Assembly: GCA_963793425.1 (NCBI GenBank)
Contig: CAWCAG010000007.1
Coordinates: forward strand, 515,217 to 579,216
Direction of reading: 5' to 3'
Origin: an uncultured cyanobacterium
GTDB lineage: Bacteria; Cyanobacteriota; Cyanobacteriia; Cyanobacteriales; CAWCAG01
Length of the DNA stretch: 64,000 bases
Shown here in pieces: positions 4,908-27,554 of this stretch; the first letter of the stretch is position 1; the number at the start of each line of letters is the position of its first letter. A program made the position numbers and the translations under genes. Under the pieces are notes generated by a model. It was not told where the DNA came from, did not search any database, and was given only the letters and a program-made list of their open reading frames with translations.

Positions 4908-6056
4908 CTATGGCCAAACTTGTTTACCTTGTTTGTCAATGTAAACATACTCGCCTTCTAAGGTAGAGTGCCATAATGTGTTCTCAAAATTATTTACATA
5001 ATCTAAACGGGCCGGTACAACCATTTGGCCAGTCTTATCAATAAGTCCCCACTTACTATTAGATTTTACAGGGGCCAATCCGTTAGTAAATTCTTCCGCT
5101 ATTTGAAACTGTGATTCGATAGCTATTTTTCCTGTTTCGTCAATATAACCCATCTTATTATTTAGTTTTATGGGAGCTAAACCTTCAGCAAATTTTCCTG
5201 CAAACTCAAATTGAGGAGAAATAGCCCACTTACCTTTCGAGTTAATAAATCCCCATTTTCCTTTACTCTCAGCAGCAGCCAAACCTTCTGAAAAACTGCT
5301 TGTCCATCCTAACCAAGGACGGACTACCCATTTTCCTTTTTTGTTGATGAAGCCCCAGCCACCATATTTAACAGCAGCTACTCCTTCTGAAAATGATTCT
5401 GCTGCCTCAAATTTAGCTTTGCTTACTTGTCTACCTTCGTTATCAACAAAACCCACTAAATTATTTTGGAAAAACTTAGCTCGTCCTTCTGAAAATTGGG
5501 CTACAGATTCATACTGTGGTGATACTATAAATTCACCAGTTTTGTTAATGAAACCCCACTTGCCATCTTTTTGAGCAGCAGCTAAACCTTCTGAAAAGTT
5601 ATTAAGTTGAGCAAATTGATTCTTGACTACCAATGTTTCCTGATGGTCGATAGCTCCCCAAAGATTATCTATTTTGACTAACGCTAGTCCTTCCACAAAA
5701 GGTCTAACTTCAGCAAATTGAGGGCTAATAACTACTTTACCTTTTGTGTTAACAAAACCCCATTTACCTTCTATTTTTACAGCAGCAAGTCCTTCAGAGA
5801 AGGTAGTAGCATCAGCAAATTGAAGAGGAATCATTATCTGACCTGAGTTGTCAATATAACCATATTTGCCCTGTTCATTGACAAGATATCTTTCTTCGGA
5901 CATATTACTAAGCTCTGAGGAAGAAATTGTTACAGAATTCAATTTATTAGAGTTACTTGAGACTAGTTGGGGAACCTGGCAACTGCTAAGGATAAAACTA
6001 ATAGTAATAGTTATCCAGAAGTGGATTGTAATTTCTTTAATAATTGATCTGCTCAT
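4908..6056 (-). CDS. WG-repeat lipoprotein (candidate immunity protein for the upstream toxin)
   Basis: 382 aa. Lipobox ILSSC. About ten tandem repeats of the form KWGFINxxGxxVIxPQFxxxxxFSEGLAAV. Start lies 34 nt downstream of toxin gene 6091-7413 on the same strand. Confidence 0.85.
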   Translation of the reverse strand: MSRSIIKEITIHFWITITISFILSSCQVPQLVSSNSNKLNSVTISSSELSNMSEERYLVNEQGKYGYIDNSGQIMIPLQFADATTFSEGLAAVKIEGKWGFVNTKGKVVISPQFAEVRPFVEGLALVKIDNLWGAIDHQETLVVKNQFAQLNNFSEGLAAAQKDGKWGFINKTGEFIVSPQYESVAQFSEGRAKFFQNNLVGFVDNEGRQVSKAKFEAAESFSEGVAAVKYGGWGFINKKGKWVVRPWLGWTSSFSEGLAAAESKGKWGFINSKGKWAISPQFEFAGKFAEGLAPIKLNNKMGYIDETGKIAIESQFQIAEEFTNGLAPVKSNSKWGLIDKTGQMVVPARLDYVNNFENTLWHSTLEGEYVYIDKQGKQVWP

Positions 6057-6090: not shown

Positions 6091-7413
6091 TTAAGACTCA
6101 TTCTTAATGGTAATTCTGCCTACACTTCTTGAATCTTTTCTAGATTGGATTAAATAAGCCCATATTTGTTCCCAATGTTCTGTATTAACAACTGTGACAC
6201 AACCTTGGCTCACCATACCTGGATGTAGATAGCGATCTCCACTATTACCGATACGGAACCAAGTTGTGGCGTAGTTACCATATGCGGCTCCAAGACTATG
6301 TTGATAGTCAGGAATTTCTAGATCGTATGTACCTGAAGGAATAGGATTGGTAGCATCCATATGTGCGCTTATGGGACCGAAGCTACCAAAATTAAACTGA
6401 CCATTCCACACATTTCCAAAATCCTTGACTTTTGTCCAAGTTACCTGAGCTGAACTATTAGGATTGAGGTAATGACCCAATTGGTCTGTGCTTACCTTTG
6501 CTTTTTTGTCTTTATAATACCCTTCGTGAATTTTAATCCTTCTTACGTCTCCTTCGTTAGTTAATAGGGTAACTTTGAGAGTATGTGGAAGTTCTACAGG
6601 CTCTCCAGGGATATGGAAAGGACCAAGATAACCACTTTTTAAATCAGCCCATCCTGGGTGCTGTGGAGCTACAATACGACGATACGTACCTCCTCTAGCA
6701 ATCAATTGCTCTTCATTTCCCCTAGAAGCTGCTTGCTCAGATTGCGAATCTTCCTTTTTAGCAACAAAGCTGTTGTTATCTGGAATGGATGAAGTGTTCT
6801 TTTGATAGTCTTTTAATAAAGGCTGAACAGACTCTCCAGCAGCTACCTTAGCCCCCACAGCATCAGCCTCCACCTCATACTTATCTCCCACCTTGCCCAT
6901 CTCCCCCGCAAGTTGTACCTTACCGGATTGTTGCTGGACAACATGAGTTCCTTCATGGGCAGCTAACTCAACGCTAGGAGGCTTTTGGAAAGCAATCTTG
7001 TTCCCCATTGTATAAGCCTGCGCCCCCAATTGCTTACTCGCTGCTGTTGCTGGGCCACCGATATAAGCTTGGACATGGGATAAATCTTGTCCAAATGACC
7101 TTTGAATTCTATCTAAATGGGGTAACGCTACAGGGGAACCTGTAAAACCTGTAGCAGCAATCTGGGTGGGAGAATGATTAGCTTCTTCACCTCCACATTT
7201 GGCACATTTAGCTTGTACCTGTAAACCAGAACACATATTATCCCACATGGCCTTTTCACCGGCTATTTGCTGTTGCGTTGATGACTTCTTTTGAACTACA
7301 GGATTAGGAGTAGCTTTTTGTTGTACAGGTTGAAAGTGAGGGGCAGAATTAATAGTTGGCTTTGGTACAGGAGGAATAAAAGAGCTAGATTTTTGGACAA
7401 GTTTGTGACTCAT
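6091..7413 (-). CDS. polymorphic toxin A: DUF4157 (HExxH) N-terminal domain + L,D-transpeptidase/Tlde1-like C-terminal domain
   Basis: 440 aa. DUF4157-like stretch LDRIQRSFGQDLSHVQAY...GAQAYTMGNKIAF...AAHEGTHVVQQ (HExxH encoded at 6943-6957). C-terminus GTYDLEI...TTWFRIG...DRYLHPGMVSQGCVTV (Cys codon at 6199-6201) fits the His...Ser-x-Gly-Cys pattern of YkuD/DUF2778-type folds. Confidence 0.75.
   Translation of the reverse strand: MSHKLVQKSSSFIPPVPKPTINSAPHFQPVQQKATPNPVVQKKSSTQQQIAGEKAMWDNMCSGLQVQAKCAKCGGEEANHSPTQIAATGFTGSPVALPHLDRIQRSFGQDLSHVQAYIGGPATAASKQLGAQAYTMGNKIAFQKPPSVELAAHEGTHVVQQQSGKVQLAGEMGKVGDKYEVEADAVGAKVAAGESVQPLLKDYQKNTSSIPDNNSFVAKKEDSQSEQAASRGNEEQLIARGGTYRRIVAPQHPGWADLKSGYLGPFHIPGEPVELPHTLKVTLLTNEGDVRRIKIHEGYYKDKKAKVSTDQLGHYLNPNSSAQVTWTKVKDFGNVWNGQFNFGSFGPISAHMDATNPIPSGTYDLEIPDYQHSLGAAYGNYATTWFRIGNSGDRYLHPGMVSQGCVTVVNTEHWEQIWAYLIQSRKDSRSVGRITIKNES
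7084..7413. repeat. copy 1 of a duplicated 330-bp toxin 5' module (codons 1-110)
   Basis: Near-identical to 8556-8885. I count 7 amino-acid substitutions in 110 codons. Homology ends exactly after codon 110 (FGQD). Confidence 0.9.
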
Positions 7414-7452
7414 GGTTAGTGACGGAAGGAAGATAATTTGAGTAGAAAACAG

Positions 7453-7494
7453 TGCTTCTTAAACATTGCTTCTTAAACATTGCTTCTCAAACAT
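7453..7494. repeat. three tandem 14-bp direct repeats (TGCTTCTTAAACAT x2, TGCTTCTCAAACAT) upstream of toxin A
   Basis: Read directly from the sequence. They sit in the 137-bp gap between 7551-7946 and the toxin A start codon. Confidence 0.85.
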
Positions 7495-7550
7495 TCTGTT
7501 ACGGAAACATCTTTTAAAATGAGTTCCAATGTGAACTTTCGTCAAAATAA

Positions 7551-7946
7551 CTAAAGACCGATTAATCCTGTTGAAACAGAAACATTGACAACTTTGCCTT
7601 CTTGATGATCAATTGCCACTAACCATCTTCTTGAAACAAGCAATGCTTTGCTAAGCAACAGTTTGCTAAAGTCACAATGAAGAAAATCTTTCTCCTCAGT
7701 AGTTCCAAAAGTTTCATCTTGGAGATATCTACACTTAAAGCGATTTTCCTCCATTACTTTTTTTGCTTGGAAAACAGGACTACCCACCGAAATATGAGCT
7801 AGAATCTCTTTTTCCATCAAGCGTGGATCTTCATAAAACTTGATTTTGTTTACCATTGATTTACTCGCAAAGTTAAAAGCAACGTACACAATGATTCCTA
7901 CTAGGAAAAGAAGTAAAAAGTTTAGTGGTTTTTGATATATATTCAT
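7551..7946 (-). CDS. small membrane-anchored protein (candidate immunity protein for toxin B)
   Basis: 131 aa. One N-terminal TM helix (LNFLLLFLVGIIVYVAFNF) plus a domain of about 100 aa. Start lies 9 nt downstream of toxin B on the same strand. Confidence 0.5.
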   Translation of the reverse strand: MNIYQKPLNFLLLFLVGIIVYVAFNFASKSMVNKIKFYEDPRLMEKEILAHISVGSPVFQAKKVMEENRFKCRYLQDETFGTTEEKDFLHCDFSKLLLSKALLVSRRWLVAIDHQEGKVVNVSVSTGLIGL

Positions 7947-7955
7947 GTTGTTGAG

Positions 7956-8885
7956 CTAAATTTTCATTTTCCAACCAGGGGCCCATACAGGTGGAGAAGG
8001 ATTACCTAAATCAGCATCTCGTATACCTTGATGAGCTACAGAGTTACTGTTGGGACCTAATGGAAAATAACGAAGTTTTTGGGCTGCAATTCGACGCATT
8101 GTACCCACTAAGCTATCCCTGTATCTATTACAGGCTTTAAAATCCAAGTTAGTTGCTGCTTTAATTGTGCCACTGATATTTCTTCCCCAATCTACAGAAC
8201 TAGAATCATATTGCCCATAGCTAGTGACTAAGTATCCCCAAAAACCTTGATCCGTTCCACTAGAGTTGCTTGAATCAGTACGACTTACATCACTGGCAGT
8301 ACCACCAGTGCTACCACTACCGCTACTACCGCTAACACCTCCATTTGCACTCGGTCCACCGCGAAAAATTGTTTCTCTTGCAGATTCGATAGGTTTACCT
8401 TGCTCATCTACAGCTACTGGATCTGAAACTATAATGAAACCATGATTACCTACCCCAAAATCTACTCCGTAGTAGCGAAGCTCAACTTTACCTGGCCGAG
8501 TAAAAGATTTGGCAAGTTGTATTGTTGAGGCTCGGTCACTTTCTACTTTAGCTGAATCTTGTCCAAATGACCTTTGAATTCTATCTAAATGAGGTAACGC
8601 TAAAGGGGAACCTGTAAAACCTGTAGCAGCAATCTGGGTGGGAGAATGATTAGCTTCTTCACCTCCACATTTGGCACATTTAGCTTGTACCTGTAAACCA
8701 GAACGCATATTATCCCACATTGCCTTTTCACCGGCTACTTGCTGTTGCGTTGATGACTTCTTTTGAACAACCGGATTAGGACTAGCTTTTTGTTGTACAG
8801 GTTGAAAATGGGGAGCGGAACTAATCGTTGGCTTTGGTACAGGAGGAAGAAAAGAACTAGATTTTTGGACAAGTTGGTGACTCAT
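7956..8885 (-). CDS. polymorphic toxin B: same 110-aa N-terminal module as toxin A, unrelated C-terminus, no HExxH
   Basis: 309 aa. Residues 1-110 are about 94% identical to toxin A. It then diverges (SAKVESDRAS...), with a Gly/Ser-rich linker and a C-terminal region ending ...YFPLGPNSNSVAHQGIRDADLG... that I could not assign to a family. Confidence 0.7.
   Translation of the reverse strand: MSHQLVQKSSSFLPPVPKPTISSAPHFQPVQQKASPNPVVQKKSSTQQQVAGEKAMWDNMRSGLQVQAKCAKCGGEEANHSPTQIAATGFTGSPLALPHLDRIQRSFGQDSAKVESDRASTIQLAKSFTRPGKVELRYYGVDFGVGNHGFIIVSDPVAVDEQGKPIESARETIFRGGPSANGGVSGSSGSGSTGGTASDVSRTDSSNSSGTDQGFWGYLVTSYGQYDSSSVDWGRNISGTIKAATNLDFKACNRYRDSLVGTMRRIAAQKLRYFPLGPNSNSVAHQGIRDADLGNPSPPVWAPGWKMKI
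8556..8885. repeat. copy 2 of the duplicated 330-bp toxin 5' module
   Basis: See 7084-7413. Partial similarity continues a few nt into the 5' UTR/RBS. Confidence 0.9.
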
Positions 8886-8929
8886 AATTAGTCAGGGAAG
8901 AACGCTACATTATCGTACTTTGTGCCGGG

Positions 8930-9035
8930 ATGTCTCTTTCTCCTCGTTTATCTGACCTAATCTATCAAGCTAGTGAAGAACAATCTACCTATATAACCTT
9001 CAATTTAGCCCTAAAAACTTTTCCTCAACCTTTAT
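8930..9035 (+). pseudogene. AAA+ ATPase (Afp15/Pvc15-like), N-terminal fragment cut off by IS insertion
   Basis: ATG at 8930. The reading frame MSLSPRLSDLIYQASEEQSTYITFNLALKTFPQPL runs into the IS left end. Joining 9035 to 10376 continues the ORF in frame. Confidence 0.65.
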
Positions 9036-10375
9036 CAAAACGAAAAAAAGGTTTAAAACCCCGCCGTTTTAGGGCGGATTCGTTGATTTTTTCAGGTACA
9101 ATAAACATAATTTGCCAATAGCAACTGTTGCAACCAACATGAAAGCTAGATACAGATACAGATTTTACCCAACGAAGGAGCAGAAACACTCATTTGCTCA
9201 ACTATTTGGCTGTATCCGCGTCGTCTGGAATGATGCTCTGGCACAATGCAAAAGTGAAGGCAAAGCATTAAGCTACAACAAACTATCTAGCCTGTTAACC
9301 ATAGCCAAGAAGACAGAAGAAAGGATTTGGCTAAGGGATGTATCAGCAGTCCCCTTACAACAAACTTTAAGAAACTTAGCCGCAGCCTATAAAAACTTTT
9401 TCGACTCGTGCCGTGGTAAAAGGAAAGGTAAAAAAGTCTTACCACCAAGATTCAAAAAGCGGAGTAATCAACAAAGTGCAGCATTTACAAAATCAGCCTT
9501 CTCAATGGAAGGGCAACAAGTCTGCCTAACGAAAATTGGCAACATTACACCTATACTCTCAAGAGAACTTCCCTCAACTCCCACCTCTCTAACAGTAATC
9601 AAAGGTAGTGCGGATAGATACTTCATAAGCTTCGTAGTTGAAATACAACCACAAAACTTACCTAAGTGCCAATCAAGCATAGGAATAGACTTAGGAATAA
9701 CCGACTTTGCCACATTCAGTAATGGAGAGAAAATCAAAGCCCCAAAACCCTTAAAAAAGAAACTAAAGAAGCTCAGAAAACTACAACGTAACCTTGCCAG
9801 AAAGACGAAAGGTAGTAAGAGACGAGAATTAGCTAGAAGGAGAGTAGCCAAGCTTAACGCCAAGATAAAAGACACCAGAACAGATTTTCTACATAAGCTA
9901 TCAACTAAGATAATTCGTGAAAACCAAACGATAATCTTAGAAGATTTAAACGTATCGGGAATGCTCCGAAACCGTAAGTTATCCCGTGCAATTAGTGATT
10001 TAGGTTGGCGTAGTTTCAGAACTATGTTAGAAGCCAAATCAGTAATGTATGGCAGAGAATTTAGGGTAATAGATAGATGGGAACCCACATCACAGAGATG
10101 TCATGAGTGTGGTTTTAGAGGCGGCAAGCAGGAACTCTCTATTAGAGAATGGACTTGCTTAAACTGCGGTGCAGTTCACGATAGAGACGTTAATGCCGCC
10201 ATAAATATCAAAGTCGCGGGGGGACACTCTGAGACGATAAACGGACGTGGAGGGAAGCGTAAGACTACAACCGTAGCAGCACCCAAAGAAACGTCAACCC
10301 ACTTAAAACCTGTTCAACTTTCGTTGTTTGGGTAGATGAGGAATCCCCGTCTCTTTAGAGCGGGGAGGATGTCAA
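9036..10375 (+). mobile_element. IS200/IS605-family, tnpB-only (IS1341-type) element
   Basis: Boundaries were set by comparison with the second copy at 61148-61664. The shared sequence starts after TTTAT and ends ...GGATGTCAA. Subterminal hairpins: CCGCC-GTTTTAG-GGCGG near the left end and CCCCGTCTCT-TTAG-AGCGGGG near the right end. No tnpA gene. Confidence 0.85.
9139..10335 (+). CDS. tnpB: TnpB RNA-guided endonuclease (IS605 OrfB family)
   Basis: Probable ATG at 9139 ([12 protein letters not shown]). The ORF track extends to a TTG at 9112. RuvC motifs IGIDLGITDF, IILEDLNV and [11 protein letters not shown] are present, plus the zinc ribbon CHECG...CLNCG. Confidence 0.9.
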   Translation: MKARYRYRFYPTKEQKHSFAQLFGCIRVVWNDALAQCKSEGKALSYNKLSSLLTIAKKTEERIWLRDVSAVPLQQTLRNLAAAYKNFFDSCRGKRKGKKVLPPRFKKRSNQQSAAFTKSAFSMEGQQVCLTKIGNITPILSRELPSTPTSLTVIKGSADRYFISFVVEIQPQNLPKCQSSIGIDLGITDFATFSNGEKIKAPKPLKKKLKKLRKLQRNLARKTKGSKRRELARRRVAKLNAKIKDTRTDFLHKLSTKIIRENQTIILEDLNVSGMLRNRKLSRAISDLGWRSFRTMLEAKSVMYGREFRVIDRWEPTSQRCHECGFRGGKQELSIREWTCLNCGAVHDRDVNAAINIKVAGGHSETINGRGGKRKTTTVAAPKETSTHLKPVQLSLFG

Positions 10376-10395
10376 ACCATAGTCTTAATCCCCAT
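10180..10395 (+). ncRNA. predicted omega-RNA (scaffold over the tnpB 3' end and right end, plus a flank-derived guide)
   Basis: By analogy to characterised TnpB elements. The region is conserved in the deleted copy at 61.3-61.66 kb and contains the right-end hairpin. Exact 5' end and guide length are unknown. Confidence 0.4.
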
Positions 10396-12007
10396 GCCCC
10401 CTTACGTCACTGGCAAATTATCACTCCCATAGGTACAGACCCCCTGTTTTTACGTCCCTTAGCCTTAGATGAAACCATCTTCCACTACCTCTTAGGACAA
10501 CCTTGCCTTGACCCACAATTACAGGGTTTAGTCAAGCCTTTAACCCTGAAGCAAACAACCTTGCCCCCTTCCCACCAAGCCTTAGCAACCAGGTTAATCA
10601 CTGCCTGGTCTAGCCCTAACCCTCCGGTAGTACAATTAGTGGGTTCTGATTTTGCTGCTAAGGCTACTATTGCTGCTATTTCAACTCAACAGTTAGGCTT
10701 TTCTTTACTCACCATCCCTGCCCATCTCCTACCCCAAGAAACCACAGCATTACAAGAATTCTGCCAACGACTAGAAAGACAAACTATTTTGGGACGTAGC
10801 TTAGTTTTCCTCGATTGTCGTCAAATCTTAGAAAGTGATGGTTTAGCAGAGAAATTCTTTTCTCAATTAATTGAACAACTGCCTACTCCCTTCCTCATTA
10901 ACTCCCCAAAGCCCAAACAAATTTCTCAACCTTGCTTAATTCTGGAAGTTAACCCTCCCACTAAAGGGGAACAATTGCAACTTTGGCAAACTGCCTTGGG
11001 AGATGTGGCTACAAATTTAGAAACAGAATTGGCATCCTTGGCATATCAATATAATCTCGACCTCCCCACTATCCAAACCATCTGCACTCAAACTCTTACA
11101 GAATTGAACTTAAGTAACTCTCCTAGAGAATTACTCCCCAGCCTCCGACAAAACTGTCACCGTTTAGTTCGTCCAGCTTTACAAGGGTTAGCACAACACA
11201 TCGAAACCAAAGCAGATTGGGACAGATTTAATCCTGCCGGAAAAAGAAAAGAACATCCTTGAAGAAATTGTTGCCCAAGTTACTTACAGAAAAACTGTTA
11301 GTGCCGACTGGGGCTGGGCAGGGAAAGGGCAACGGGGACAGGCAATGGTGGCAGTCTTCGCTGGGGCAAGTGGTACAGGAAAAACTATGGCAGCAGAGTT
11401 GATTGGAAAGAGGACAGGTTTGGATGTTTATCGTATTGATTTGGCTGCTGTGGTGAGTAAGTATATAGGGGAAACGGAAAAACATCTGGGTCAAATTTTT
11501 GATGGTGCAGAAAGGGGAGGAGCAATTTTACTTTTTGACGAGGGGGATGCTCTGTTTGGTAAGCGTACTGAAGTAAAAGATAGTCGCGATCGCTATGCTA
11601 ATTTGAGTGTTAGTTATTTGTTGCAACGTTTGGAAGCTTACGGTGGATTAGCTATTATTACTACTAATTGGGAAGAATCTTTGGATAAAGCTTTTAAACG
11701 GCGTTTTCGCCATATTGTTCAGTTTCCCATGCCAGATAAAGAGACCAGGAAGCTACTTTGGCAAAGGATTTTTCCTCAAGCGACACCAACCCATCAGTTA
11801 AACTTTACGGAGTTAGCAAAGATGCACATTAGCGGTGGTCATATTCGCTCCATTGCTCTTAATGCCTGCTTCCTCGCTGTCAAAATAGGACAACCAGTGA
11901 CTATGAAGCAAGTGGCGATCGCTGCCCGTGGAGAGTACATAAAGCTAGATTTGGGAAATATGGATAGTTTTACTCAGCGTTGGTTAAAAGAAGCGGAGTT
12001 AAGTTAA
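10376..12007 (+). pseudogene. AAA+ ATPase (Afp15/Pvc15-like), main body with a 1-nt frameshift
   Basis: Degenerate first AAA-like region (VVQLVGSDFAAKATIAAI), then an intact module: Walker A GASGTGKTMAAE, Walker B LLFDEGDALFGKR, DRYANLSVSYLLQRLE, ITTNWEESLDKAFKRRF. The frame switches at the T-run 11227-11229. Removing one T gives ...DWDRLILPEKEKNILEEIV... The ATG at 10336 (MRNPRLFRAGRMS) lies inside the IS right end and is an artefact. Confidence 0.75.
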
Positions 12008-25256: not shown

Positions 25257-27554
25257 ATGGCTAAGCGATCGCTTAAAGCATCCCCAGAAGGTATTATTAG
25301 AGCCAAGAAAGCTTTTCAAAGAAAGGGCTGGACTCAGGAGTATCTAGCCGCCGAGGTTGGTTTATCTACTCGTCAGTCCATTTGGAAGTTTTTTACCGGA
25401 AGACCAATTGAGAGGCATCTTTTTGTGGATATTTGCTTTCAATTGGATCTTGAATGGCAATCTATCGCTGATTTACCTCCAGATGTAGAGCCTTTACCTG
25501 CCGCCACGGGGTTAGATAATCATGCCGGAGTAGAAAATTGGGTGGTGACTTTGCGCTCCCAAACTAAGGAGCAAATTCAAGCTCAATGCGGTATTTTGCA
25601 GTCATCTTTTGATATGACTCAACCTTTATTACTAGATTCTATTTATACTAATGTTAACATTTTGCCCCATCTTACTAATCAAAGATGGTTAGAAGTTTCA
25701 GATTTGCAAGATTCTCGCCCAGAGGTGGAACGCCCTCGGTTAACCTCAATAAATCAGCAGGTAGTTGCAGGTATTCAAGCCGCTACCGATAGTGCTAAGT
25801 TAATGATTTTGGGTAAACCTGGGGCTGGCAAAACTACCTTTTTACAGTATTTAGCGATTCAATGCAGCAAAGGTGAATATAAGGGTGATTGCATACCGAT
25901 TTTTATCCAGCTACGCAATTTTGTAGCTCAAACTAAAGAAGAAGAAGATTTTAGTCTTACAAATTATATTGCTCGAAGTTGGAGTAGTTATCAAGTTACT
26001 CAAGAACAAGTAGAAATTCTTTTGCAAAAAGGTAAGCTTTTAGTACTTTTAGATGGATTAGATGAAGTTCCCAAAGAATATAGTCAACAAGTTTTAAAAG
26101 AAATAGACCTTTTCGCTAATAACTACTATCAAAATCAAGTTATTATCACTTGCCGTATTGCTGCCCAACAATATTATTTTCGAGGATTTAATTATGTAGA
26201 AATTGCTGACTTTGATTCTAGCCAAATTAGAACTTTTGCCCAGAAATGGTTTGTTGCCAATTCTGGTGGTTCTGAAGAAGCAGGAATTCTTTTAACCAAG
26301 AAGTTTTTTGAACAGTTAGAATGCCGAGAAAATCAACCAATCAGAGAATTAGTTGCTACGCCTATTTTATTGAGCTTAATCTGCTCTGTATTCCAAGAAA
26401 GAGCTACTTTTCCGACTAAACGTTCTAAACTTTATCAAGCAGGTTTAGATATTCTGTTGGTACGTTGGGACCAAGCAAGGGGAATTCAAAGGGATCAAGC
26501 TTACCGTAACTTATCTTTAGCGGATAAAATCAAGCTTCTTAGTCAGATTGCGGCTATAAATTTTGAGCGAGGTAGTTTCTTTTTTGAAAAGAGTGAAATA
26601 CTCGATATTATTAGCAATCATTTAGCTAAATTACCTAATCATAAGCCAGATCCAGAAACTTTATGGTTAGATAGCGAGGCAATCCTCACAGCCATTGAAT
26701 TACAACATGGTTTATTGGTAGAAAGAGCTAGAGACATTTATTCTTTTTCTCATTTAACTTTTCAAGAATATCTTACTGCCAGAAAAATAGTTGCTAGTAC
26801 TGATAAAGAAGTATTAGAAGAGTCTTTAAATATGCTTGCTAGCCATGCTACTAATCCACAATGGCAAGAAGTTATTTTATTGACTTCGAGTATGTTACCG
26901 AATGCAGATTTTCTTTTGCAACTAATTAAAAAAGAGATTGATAAAATTTTCAAGGGTAAAGAAGAGCTGAGAAAATTTCTTAGCTGCCTCAATCAAAAAG
27001 TTAATAGCTTAGATGTCTCTTACCATTTAGGGGCAGTAAGAGCTTTTTATTTTACTCTTTTTCAAGATAGAGACTTGAATTTAGCTTTATCTTTAGACCC
27101 CAGTTTAGCTTCTGATTTGTCTCCAGATTTAGCTTTAGATTTAGCTTTAGCTCGCGCTTTTCGTATCAGCTTAATTTTAATCAAAAGCCCAGACCTGAAA
27201 AATATCATCAATTTAGGCTTTGCTTTAGATTTAGAGCGCAATTTCAACTTAGAGAAACCATTGCAGCAAGCCCTAGAAAAACTCAAACAAGAACTACCAG
27301 ATTTAGAAATAGGTAAAGAGAAACTTCAATCTTGGTGGCATAGTTATGGTGCAGAATGGGTGAGCAAATTTAGAGCTTTACTAATTGAATACAGACAAAT
27401 TGGTTATGAATGGCAGTTTACTCTTCAACAAGAACAATTACTGCGAAAATACTATGATAGTAACAAATTTATGATTAAGTGCCTGCAAAGCGATTGTCAA
27501 GTTAGTGGTGATCTGCGCCAAAAGATAGAAGATACAACTTTAAATCTCCCCTAA
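25257..27554 (+). CDS. STAND NTPase: N-terminal HTH-like domain + NACHT + helical C-terminal repeats
   Basis: 765 aa. XRE-like GWTQEYLAAEVGLSTRQSIWKFF. Walker A GKPGAGKTTFLQYLA, Walker B LLVLLDGLDEV. C-terminal LALDLALDLALARAF-type low-complexity helical region. Confidence 0.85.
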   Translation: MAKRSLKASPEGIIRAKKAFQRKGWTQEYLAAEVGLSTRQSIWKFFTGRPIERHLFVDICFQLDLEWQSIADLPPDVEPLPAATGLDNHAGVENWVVTLRSQTKEQIQAQCGILQSSFDMTQPLLLDSIYTNVNILPHLTNQRWLEVSDLQDSRPEVERPRLTSINQQVVAGIQAATDSAKLMILGKPGAGKTTFLQYLAIQCSKGEYKGDCIPIFIQLRNFVAQTKEEEDFSLTNYIARSWSSYQVTQEQVEILLQKGKLLVLLDGLDEVPKEYSQQVLKEIDLFANNYYQNQVIITCRIAAQQYYFRGFNYVEIADFDSSQIRTFAQKWFVANSGGSEEAGILLTKKFFEQLECRENQPIRELVATPILLSLICSVFQERATFPTKRSKLYQAGLDILLVRWDQARGIQRDQAYRNLSLADKIKLLSQIAAINFERGSFFFEKSEILDIISNHLAKLPNHKPDPETLWLDSEAILTAIELQHGLLVERARDIYSFSHLTFQEYLTARKIVASTDKEVLEESLNMLASHATNPQWQEVILLTSSMLPNADFLLQLIKKEIDKIFKGKEELRKFLSCLNQKVNSLDVSYHLGAVRAFYFTLFQDRDLNLALSLDPSLASDLSPDLALDLALARAFRISLILIKSPDLKNIINLGFALDLERNFNLEKPLQQALEKLKQELPDLEIGKEKLQSWWHSYGAEWVSKFRALLIEYRQIGYEWQFTLQQEQLLRKYYDSNKFMIKCLQSDCQVSGDLRQKIEDTTLNLP

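Follow-up and report, generated by a model that had tools for sequence, protein, structure and literature searches.

Tlde1 proteins (DUF2778, PF10908), also named Tae5-7, are Salmonella effectors of the type VI system with L,D-carboxypeptidase and D-amino-acid exchange activity. In Tlde1a, which has a capping sub-domain, H121, H129 and C131 form the motif H-x(7)-H-G-C, and the immunity proteins against these effectors are of several unrelated families and bear either a Sec signal or a membrane anchor. DpaA (YafK, also LdtF), which belongs to a sub-family of the YkuD enzymes, detaches Braun's lipoprotein from peptidoglycan and has Cys143 as its proven nucleophile. The YkuD fold is a beta-sandwich in which one helix follows the Cys strand. 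An L,D-peptidase fold is found in Tox-LD-peptidase, described for polymorphic toxin systems by Zhang et al. (2012), and DUF5675 proteins were classed as C82-like, meaning YkuD-like, by a 2026 preprint. As for eCIS cargo, the AlgoCIS proteins Cgo1 and Cgo2 fill the tube lumen and require their N-terminal region for loading, and a metalloprotease was predicted for the C-terminal domain of Cgo1. An activity is known for very few eCIS cargo proteins.

The window, i.e. the whole 64-kb stretch of DNA that was analysed, harbors an intact open reading frame at 6091..7413 on the minus strand for a protein of 440 amino acids, called toxin A here, whose C-terminal end is YATTWFRIGNSGDRYLHPGMVSQGC and whose stop codon lies at 6091-6093. 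Toxin A is best explained as an injected cell-wall toxin that is carried as eCIS cargo and is neutralized in the producer by a WG-repeat lipoprotein serving as immunity protein, a reading to which a probability of about 0.65 is assigned. The parts of toxin A are as follows.

7114..7413, minus strand: residues 1-100, polar leader at the N-terminus with many Pro, Gln, Lys and Ser residues (composition and hydropathy).
6922..7113, minus strand: residues 101-164, DUF4157/eCIS_core with the zinc-peptidase motif HEGTH (PF13699, 56.5 bits against a cut-off of 22).
6682..6921, minus strand: residues 165-244, linker of low complexity with abundant Ala, Lys, Gly and Glu (composition).
6463..6681, minus strand: residues ~245-317, SH3-like beta-barrel sub-domain (family conservation and weak Foldseek matches).
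6094..6462, minus strand: residues 318-440, predicted YkuD/C82-like Cys-His catalytic domain (sub-threshold Tlde1_dom match, models, fold matches and conservation).

A first-pass annotation, made from the sequence alone, had read toxin A as a DUF4157 leader fused to an L,D-transpeptidase/Tlde1-like domain. The strings that it quoted from the protein, GTYDLEIPDYQH... and ...ATTWFRIGNSGDRYLHPGMVSQGCVTVVNTEHWEQIWAYL, match the translation exactly, and Cys405 is encoded at 6199-6201 (TGT), as it had said; the codons of His397 and His372 lie at 6223-6225 and 6298-6300, respectively. The DUF4157 assignment is confirmed by the Pfam match of residues 101-164 to eCIS_core (E 3.3e-15), in which HEGTH occupies residues 153-157 (6943-6957). 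The preceding leader, in which a hydropathy scan found no hydrophobic segment (KD15 maximum 0.09), is proposed to be a disordered loading sequence for the eCIS tube that is specific to the system. The linker gave no family match in the Pfam search, and the part of it that is included in the model of residues 236-440 has a low pLDDT at the first residues of that model. Searches of NCBIfam and PADLOC gave no match for toxin A or its three neighbours, and scans for promoters and terminators around the operon stayed at the chance level.

The AlphaFold2 models of toxin A are confident: the one of residues 236-440 has a pLDDT of 91 and the one of residues 318-440 a pLDDT of 87. The catalytic domain is modelled as a strand bearing the His, a loop, the Cys strand, a helix and a final strand. 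The only meaningful matches of these models in the PDB are enzymes of the YkuD fold, DpaA (8ikr; Foldseek probability 0.95-0.99, TM 0.47) and YcbB (6ntw; TM 0.50), so that the predicted structure agrees with the YkuD-like fold anticipated in the first-pass annotation. Among the viral predicted structures of BFVD, proteins annotated as L,D-carboxypeptidase/transpeptidase, as a Nodularia phage endolysin and as DUF5675 are matched with a probability of 1.0 and a TM of 0.62-0.77, and all annotated structural neighbours of the domain are cell-wall-acting. Toxin A thus has two traits of the YkuD/C82 enzymes, the structural match to solved members and a His upstream of (S/T)-x-G-C; because the match to solved structures is modest, the assignment holds at the superfamily level only. 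A papain-like or NlpC/P60 fold was rejected, since the His follows the Cys in those enzymes and precedes it by eight residues here, and the NlpC/P60 entries found by Foldseek were matched solely through their SH3b modules.

Besides eCIS_core, the sole Pfam match of toxin A is Tlde1_dom (E ~2e-5), which scores 19.8 bits with the full protein, 22.5 bits with residues 236-440 and 25.0-25.3 bits with the last 90-111 residues, in each case below the gathering threshold of 30.1 bits. The last 90 residues align to positions 25-116 of the 120 in the profile (E 2.7e-5). Among diverse members of the family to which the domain belongs, 8 of 42 and 8 of 50 match Tlde1_dom at E <= 0.01 (best 2.6e-6), some others match YkuD (best E 5e-6), and a precomputed PF10908 annotation is found on none among the homologues listed. 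Tlde1a (7UMA) and LdtMt2 are absent from the Foldseek matches of the model in the PDB. A phmmer search of toxin A against PDB sequences gave a spurious TPR match only, and family profiles searched against the same sequences gave nothing relevant. Comparison of the family by hhalign with Escherichia coli DpaA alone and with an alignment of 26 DpaA sequences gave probabilities of 0.5-3.5%, with alignments confined to the active-site stretch; the DpaA profile is shallow, because the DpaA homologues listed are all at least 60% identical. No sequence test of the domain thus reached a curated threshold. The sub-threshold Tlde1_dom score, taken together with the YkuD-fold matches, indicates a new YkuD/C82-like family rather than a member of Tlde1; judged from the models, the domain represents a previously unnamed family of this kind, a sizeable branch of the L,D-transpeptidase superfamily that carries no annotation. 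The L,D-transpeptidase part of the earlier assignment is therefore retained as a YkuD-like fold, whereas membership in Tlde1/DUF2778 is not (25 against 30.1 bits, and 7UMA not among the fold matches).

The family comprising the last ~120 residues of toxin A is visible only by a full HMMER scan, and an initial word-based search found three relatives only. The scan gave 378 cluster representatives at E <= 1e-3 and 228 at E <= 1e-10 (clusters at 50% identity, ~380 in number), with a match signal far above chance. The hosts are cyanobacteria, Patescibacteria, Bacteroidota, Firmicutes, Actinobacteria and proteobacteria, and viral contigs are nearly free of the family, with 2 loci in IMG/VR. Most of the best 150 of the 378 matches contain the motif HxGxxSxGC, and the key residues of the domain in toxin A are His372, Trp385, His397, Ser402, Gly404 and Cys405. 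The His/Cys pair put forward in the first-pass annotation is indeed conserved: His397 is invariant in every family alignment made, and Cys405, the putative nucleophile, has no exception in alignments A1-A4 and a conservation of 90% or more in A6 and A7. Gly404 is invariant in every alignment, Gly399 in all family-wide alignments from A3 onward, and Ser402 in A1, A3 and A4, with Thr at this position in part of the diverse set A6. Fusions to OmpA, PG_binding_1, Amidase_3 and SLT domains occur within the family, DUF5675 is found fused to or adjoining its members, and eCIS_core is present in 30 of 88 long members.

The earlier view of toxin A as a peptidoglycan-directed effector is supported by the fold, the His/Cys pair and the exported partner genes described below, with toxicity and chemistry as predictions, and is to be corrected by the addition of the SH3-like sub-domain ahead of the catalytic domain. 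The pattern of this sub-domain is kept across the family (GW..., LP..LKV and F.ILEG; conserved columns G19, W20, P41, E62 and G63 in fragment numbering). Its Foldseek matches, namely SH3 domains and the SH3b modules of NlpC/P60 (3h41), NlpC2 (6biq) and TagH (5bnd), are weak, with probabilities of 0.9-0.97 yet E values of 0.2-0.5. The sub-domain possibly binds the cell wall.

The gene that follows toxin A encodes the candidate immunity protein.

4908..6056, minus strand: WG-repeat lipoprotein of 382 amino acids with nine WG_beta_rep repeats, candidate periplasmic immunity protein (Pfam PF14903, E 3.5e-101).

This gene begins 34 nt downstream of toxin A and is intact, and its product starts with a hydrophobic stretch followed by ILSSC, consistent with a lipobox; this exported lipoprotein probably protects the producer. 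Across related loci, an N-terminal hydrophobic anchor or signal peptide is found in the product of the next gene in 64 of 79 cases (81%), compared with 10 of 64 upstream neighbours (16%), and in only 2 of 277 family members themselves. An exported partner next to a toxin without a signal is, as far as sequence can tell, what would be expected of a toxin that acts in the periplasm and of its immunity protein. The downstream partners of related toxins belong to at least four unrelated families, and since HMMs of four of these families found no homologue within the window, the WG protein appears to be a separate candidate type of immunity protein. WG-repeat neighbours occur in just 2 of ~90 other loci, and in the Coleofasciculus locus L009 the gene directly after that of the orthologous toxin encodes a WG protein of 40% identity. 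The periplasmic immunity protein that the first-pass annotation had postulated gains support both from this recurrent pairing and from the 64 of 79 exported or anchored partners. No publication on what WG_beta_rep does was found in a search of the literature.

The canonical motif H-x(14-17)-(S/T)-H-G-C-h-R is altered in the active site of toxin A, as the His-Cys spacing is 8 rather than 14-17, no His precedes the Gly-Cys, and Thr407 occupies the position of the transpeptidase Arg; DpaA deviates from the motif likewise. The chemistry of toxin A may therefore differ from that of known enzymes. The same departures, together with a YafK-family protein that is reported to have a different chemistry, and with the several eCIS that target eukaryotes, could be taken to mean that the YkuD-like fold acts on something other than peptidoglycan, as a protein-directed cysteine peptidase or transferase in the bacterial or eukaryotic cytoplasm. 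Such an activity is very unlikely, because export or a membrane anchor characterizes the partner proteins, the family includes fusions to peptidoglycan-binding and -cleaving domains, an SH3-like module stands ahead of the catalytic domain, and the annotated structural neighbours all act on the cell wall.

The orthologues of toxin A in Microcoleus (L001) and in a metagenome (L005/L006) are located inside operons for sheath, tube and baseplate, directly after the loader ATPase, and are flanked by Pvc16_N and AAA loader genes on one side and by a second DUF4157 protein on the other. The third orthologue, L090, belongs to a row of DUF4157 genes located behind an AAA gene. With DUF4157 a known cargo marker, the predicted route of toxin A is the eCIS and not the T6SS. 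The delivery to a neighbouring cell's periplasm that was proposed in the first-pass annotation agrees with the exported partner genes, and DUF4157 and the operons of the orthologues point to an eCIS as its route.

The fixed place of the orthologues directly after the loader ATPase, with no exported partner or immunity gene adjacent to them in L001 and L005/L006, would also suit an enzyme that acts on the producer and loosens or removes its own peptidoglycan for release or exposure of the particles, as in the wall-less ghost cells that accompany the thylakoid-anchored system of Anabaena. Anabaena particles hold two DUF4157 proteins, the ghost cells are always without outer membrane and peptidoglycan, and phage endolysins are among the closest structural relatives of the domain. 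Toxin A, however, has no signal peptide, and no holin partner was found among its neighbours, so that it has no apparent way into the periplasm of the producer; the pairing with exported partners of several unrelated families, seen for most of the family, is better explained by immunity than by autolysis; and the swapping of the leader onto another toxin domain, along with an Ntox6 toxin in L009, fits polymorphic toxins. Action on the producer is consequently considered unlikely, and an injected toxin with its immunity protein is preferred.

Upstream of toxin A, the local island contains three further features.

7551..7946, minus strand: 131-amino-acid protein with an N-terminal membrane anchor (KD15 3.02 at residues 10-24).
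7956..8885, minus strand: toxin B, 309 amino acids, second cargo cassette (leader as in toxin A, then an unrelated C-terminal domain).
8900..12007, plus strand: remnant of an eCIS-type AAA+ loader (Afp15/Alg15-like, WHD+AAA; tblastn with the L009 ATPase, and Pfam).

The leader is common to toxins A and B up to FGQD (residue ~110), with ~95% DNA identity over 330 nt and sharp breaks at both ends. The C-terminal domain of toxin B gave no family match. The gene for the 131-amino-acid protein, which matches no family in Pfam, NCBIfam or PADLOC, begins 9 nt after toxin B, and this anchored protein is likely to be the immunity protein for toxin B. The loader has lost its first ~92 codons, is interrupted by a TnpB gene at 9112-10335 (OrfB_IS605/TnpB in Pfam) and is frameshifted near 11223: residues 93-136, 142-428 and 429-687 of the L009 ATPase align by tblastn to 8900-9028, 10384-11223 and 11225-11998, respectively, and Pfam AAA covers 11345-12007. 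No sheath, tube, spike or baseplate gene was found within the 64 kb. Because the loader ATPase is a pseudogene and the eCIS structural genes are missing from the window, the delivery of this copy of toxin A is a step that we infer.

The decayed loader and the missing structural genes could alternatively signify that this copy is an orphan relic, intact in sequence yet undelivered and perhaps retained for the immunity gene alone. The open reading frames of toxin A and its WG partner are both intact, however, and a near-identical toxin A protein is present in another Spirulinaceae assembly. In addition, the Coleofasciculus island, which consists of a divergent AAA gene, the toxin, the WG protein and a DUF4157-Ntox6 toxin in the same satellite layout as in the window, likewise lies away from structural genes although its ATPase is intact, implying that satellite islands are a normal arrangement. 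A relic is therefore unlikely, and a second loader or the structural operon may be located elsewhere in the genome.

[quoted passage not shown] The AAA+ loader would thread toxin A into the tube lumen of a phage-tail-like particle, which would free it in the envelope of a target bacterium. There, Cys405, activated by His397, would attack an amide bond of the peptidoglycan stem peptide, probably the one at the diamino acid in position three, the site also used by L,D-carboxypeptidases, Tlde1 and DpaA, and the acyl-enzyme would be hydrolysed or resolved onto another amine. Usable stems would be depleted or links cut, so that the wall weakens, and the WG-repeat lipoprotein in the producer's periplasm would block toxin A that arrives from sister cells.

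A cargo that points to peptidoglycan by its fold, its fusions and its exported partners would provide direct evidence for eCIS that target bacteria and discharge their cargo into the periplasm, and the immunity role, if true, would be the first function for the WG_beta_rep repeat family. The toxin A family is also a candidate source of the enzyme for the cyanobacterial wall loss that is seen with thylakoid-anchored injection systems; if this is true, the same cargo could strip peptidoglycan in the CIS-linked formation of ghost cells in filamentous cyanobacteria. The broadest proposal, that toxin A founds a widespread, as yet unnamed family of YkuD-like toxins against the cell wall, carried by contractile injection particles, neutralized by WG-repeat lipoproteins in cyanobacteria and able to strip the peptidoglycan of ghost cells, is tentative and, taken as a whole, somewhat doubtful.

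Toxin A shares with Tox-LD-peptidase the concept of an L,D-peptidase fold that serves as the C-terminal toxin of a cassette-swapping modular protein with a linked immunity gene. Tox-LD-peptidase differs from it in having been described with RHS repeats, with delivery by T2SS, T6SS or TcdB and with Imm16 and Imm57 as immunity proteins, and its table entry includes neither cyanobacteria nor PVC-type delivery (Zhang et al., 2012). Toxin A resembles cargo of the Cgo1/Cgo2 type in that a disordered leader common to two cargos is followed by DUF4157 and then by a variable C-terminal domain, and the Cgo1/Cgo2 genes lie directly after the AAA+ loader gene, exactly the position of the L001 and L005 orthologues; the papers on that cargo from which this comparison is drawn describe no L,D-peptidase-like member. 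The closest structural matches of toxin A are phage DUF5675 (PF18925) and L,D-carboxypeptidase/endolysin proteins, including a cyanophage endolysin, with no sequence match between Pfam DUF5675 and toxin A.

The resemblance to Tlde1 consists of a small Cys-His domain akin to the L,D-transpeptidases, in which the His-Cys spacing is shortened and the local context reads Y-x-H ... G-C, in a protein without a signal peptide whose partners belong to several unrelated exported or anchored families, the antibacterial role of toxin A being predicted. The part of toxin A that aligns to the Tlde1_dom profile includes His397 and Cys405, which are spaced by 8 residues rather than 10, and the position of Tlde1's His129 is taken by Ala, Leu or Gln (S-x-G-C). 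Toxin A further differs in its additional N-terminal SH3-like barrel, in its DUF4157 leader and eCIS context instead of T6SS or Rhs, and in a family whose hosts include cyanobacteria, Patescibacteria, Bacteroidota and Firmicutes rather than proteobacteria alone.

DpaA is the best fold match in the PDB, yet with a TM of 0.47 and a profile-profile probability of 3.5%, and it is a Sec-exported housekeeping enzyme rather than a toxin, without an SH3-like module or leader. In the active site, the His-8-Cys spacing is identical, as IHGDCVSIGC in DpaA corresponds to LHPGMVSQGC in toxin A, with LH.G..S.GC in register with IHG.CVS.GC and a helix next in both. The toxin A family is thus a branch of the L,D-transpeptidases with a short, DpaA-like His-8-Cys active site. 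Both proteins also lack the transpeptidase Arg two residues after the Cys, a shared absence that hints at hydrolysis rather than cross-linking.

Toxin A is encoded by an uninterrupted open reading frame of 440 residues (6091-7413, minus strand), whose translation contains letter for letter the residue strings quoted in the first-pass annotation, and the window is cyanobacterial, because it carries psbB. The DUF4157 leader claimed in that annotation is borne out: Pfam eCIS_core (PF13699, formerly named DUF4157) matches residues 101-164 (E 3e-15), and HEGTH occupies positions 153-157 within this match. The C-terminus matched Tlde1_dom (PF10908) below the curated Pfam cut-off of 30.1 bits, at 19.8 bits with the whole protein and at 25.3 bits (E 2e-5) with the last 111 residues, and toxin A had no match in NCBIfam, PADLOC or a direct PDB sequence search. 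A Spirulinaceae assembly contains a near-identical sequence, entered as a DUF4157 protein. At 7447-7495, 3.5 tandem copies of a 14-nt unit, AAACATTGCTTCTT, begin 34 nt before the start codon of toxin A; the unit is absent upstream of toxin B.

AlphaFold2 models, built with a 121-sequence alignment, were confident for residues 236-440 (pLDDT 91, pTM 0.88) and residues 318-440 (pLDDT 87). The 205-residue region consists of an SH3-barrel-like first half, weakly matched (E 0.2-0.5) by SH3 barrels, including SH3b modules of cell-wall enzymes, and a catalytic domain in the last ~120 residues. In the PDB fold comparison, only YkuD-fold enzymes rise above noise: DpaA (8ikr) is the top match with both models (probability 0.95-0.99, TM 0.47), YcbB (6ntw) is matched with TM 0.50, and Tlde1a (7UMA) is absent from the matches. 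Predicted viral structures match far better than the PDB (E down to 3e-5, probability 1.0, TM 0.62-0.77); those named are a crAss-like phage 'L,D-carboxypeptidase/transpeptidase', a Nodularia cyanophage endolysin and DUF5675 proteins, which are C82-like, i.e., YkuD-like, according to a 2026 preprint.

The sequence evidence for the fold is weaker than the structural evidence. Family profiles found nothing among PDB sequences, and hhalign aligned only the active-site stretch of DpaA, at low probability; the register is correct, with IHGDCVSIGC and the helix after it in DpaA, whose proven nucleophile is Cys143, placed opposite LHPGMVSQGC and the helix after it in toxin A. Tlde1_dom was matched independently by 8 of 42 diverse catalytic domains of the family (best 2.6e-6), and YkuD by a few (best 5e-6). 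Taken together with the fold matches, this evidence indicates that the catalytic domain is YkuD/C82-like. The YkuD-like fold proposed at first pass is thus upheld by the models and by the DpaA, YcbB and viral matches, whereas membership of the Tlde1 family is rejected, because the score lies below that family's own threshold. The canonical L,D-transpeptidase motif is H-x(14-17)-(S/T)HGC-h-R; toxin A, by contrast, has a His-Cys spacing of 8, lacks the His before Gly-Cys and has Thr at the position of the Arg. DpaA shows the same departures, which hint, by analogy, at hydrolysis rather than cross-linking.

The C-terminal region of toxin A is part of a large family that lacks annotation. Only three relatives came from a word-based search; when 1.84 billion cluster representatives were scanned in full with HMMER, 378 matched at E<=1e-3, 228 of them at E<=1e-10. 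In their sources these proteins are called only 'hypothetical' or 'DUF4157 domain-containing'. The motif H-x-G-x-x-S-x-G-C is present in most of the best 150 matches. All four family alignments (50, 121, 42 and 88 members) keep His397, Trp385, Gly404 and Arg425 without exception, and the three larger alignments also keep Gly399; Cys405 (codon TGT, 6199-6201), His372, Phe386 and Thr407 either do not vary or are conserved to 90% or more, which agrees with the His/Cys pair predicted earlier.

With one genome scanned per species, 90 family loci were found, in cyanobacteria (Coleofasciculus, Cyanobium, Desmonostoc), many Patescibacteria, Flavobacteriia, Paenibacillus, Clostridium, Streptomyces, Bradyrhizobium, myxobacteria and others; among 2.9 million viral contigs the family is nearly missing, with 2 loci. 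An abundant sub-family of ~320 aa in Patescibacteria/CPR (many loci, L007 and L031-L087) has an unassigned N-terminal domain of ~140 aa (consensus KL..I.YSGD.IG.D) before the SH3-like and catalytic domains, and is nearly always followed by a membrane-anchored partner of 160-220 aa. The proteobacterial form (~290 aa; loci L020, L029, L030 and L039 of Bradyrhizobium, Janthinobacterium, Rhizobium and Sphingosinicella) carries an N-terminal extension of ~100 aa, which resembles a coiled coil in database relatives of similar architecture (e.g., P0030); in contrast to most of the family, its downstream partners have no hydrophobic N-terminus.

The family probably acts on the cell wall. Among 88 longer members, the fusion partners of the domain include OmpA (2 members), PG_binding_1, Amidase_3 and SLT. 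The next same-strand genes at related loci can be sorted into four or more families with no relation to one another (40, 12, 10 and 4 loci), all of whose products begin with a membrane anchor, signal peptide or lipobox. A strongly hydrophobic N-terminal segment was found in 64 of 79 distinct downstream partners, as against 10 of 64 upstream neighbours, and in 2 of 277 toxins. The earlier proposals of a peptidoglycan target and a periplasmic immunity protein gain support from these fusions and exported partners.

The WG-repeat lipoprotein gene lies 34 nt downstream of toxin A, and its product has nine WG_beta_rep repeats and a lipoprotein-type N-terminus. In L009, a Coleofasciculus locus, a WG-repeat protein 40% identical to that of the window comes directly after the orthologous toxin, whose domain is 51% identical, and in Halanaerobacter WG-repeat genes lie on both sides of a stand-alone family member; the remaining loci of the ~90 have none. 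An immunity role for the WG protein is plausible, on narrow support, because such neighbours occur at few loci. The Halanaerobacter jeridensis locus (L091) is a run of small same-strand genes, including two WG_beta_rep proteins, an ankyrin-repeat protein and a DUF5675 protein, and looks like a toxin with a poly-immunity array.

The first-pass annotation compared toxin A with type VI effectors; delivery by eCIS rather than by type VI secretion is indicated by DUF4157, a published marker for eCIS-associated toxins, and by orthologues in eCIS operons. eCIS_core is present in 30 of the 88 longer members. Orthologues in Microcoleus (L001) and a metagenome (L005/L006) lie within complete eCIS operons, in the order sheath, tube, Pvc16_N, AAA+ loader, orthologue, second longer DUF4157 protein, spike and baseplate, and another (L090) lies in a DUF4157 gene array after an AAA gene. 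The genes beside toxin A are as follows.

Genes of the toxin island
7551-7946, minus strand: membrane-anchored protein, 131 aa, 9 nt after toxin B
7956-8885, minus strand: toxin B, 309 aa, with the toxin A leader, DUF4157 lost after FGQD
8900-12007, plus strand: pseudogene of an eCIS-type AAA+ loader, with 5' end lost, TnpB insertion and frameshift

The pseudogene has lost ~92 initial codons, is split by a TnpB (IS605 OrfB/Cas12f-like) gene at 9112-10335 and is frameshifted near 11223; sheath, tube, spike and baseplate genes are absent from the 64 kb window, so that toxin A may no longer be loaded and fired. The window shows a satellite island of the same kind as L009, which sits between housekeeping genes; there, an AAA+ gene is divergent from a row made up of the toxin, the WG protein, a toxin of DUF4157-Ntox6 type and one small gene. 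The Ntox6 fusion, the second cargo gene of the island in this Coleofasciculus MAG (L009 12019-13785, plus strand; Ntox6 E 7e-143), has an N-terminal leader in common with the L,D-peptidase-like toxin there; the gene after it, of 228 aa, has no family match. A 765-aa NACHT and NCH2 STAND NTPase of the window (25257-27554, plus strand) is apparently unrelated to the toxin island.

Toxins A and B have a leader in common (~95% DNA identity over 330 nt), and the identity stops abruptly at FGQD, inside DUF4157, which is cassette-swapping as expected of polymorphic toxins. The C-terminal domain of toxin B (~200 aa), unrelated to that of toxin A, has no match in Pfam, NCBIfam or PADLOC; the 131-aa protein is probably its immunity protein, and the two look like an uncharacterised toxin-immunity pair. 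In AlgoCIS, the tube lumen is filled by two DUF4157 proteins, Cgo1 and Cgo2, whose common disordered N-terminal region is needed for loading through an AAA+ protein, and DUF4157 itself is dispensable for loading; the rule of one shared N-terminal region per system fits the toxin A/B leader.

Overall, toxin A is read, with a probability of roughly two in three, as an eCIS-delivered YkuD-like cell-wall toxin with an exported immunity protein, its reaction, toxicity and immunity being predicted. L,D-peptidase domains have been proposed in modular toxins since 2012; that description, which does not list cyanobacteria, has them with RHS repeats and with delivery by T2SS, T6SS or TcdB. The literature search found no report tying DUF4157 to an L,D-peptidase-like domain, and the eCIS literature examined describes no such cargo. 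The mechanism of Tlde1 has been shown for T6SS; there, a toxin without an export signal stands beside an exported, fast-diversifying immunity partner, the same pattern as in the present family. Within the YkuD superfamily, the domain of toxin A thus represents a family of its own, and its predicted delivery machine and candidate immunity protein differ from those described for earlier L,D-peptidase toxins.
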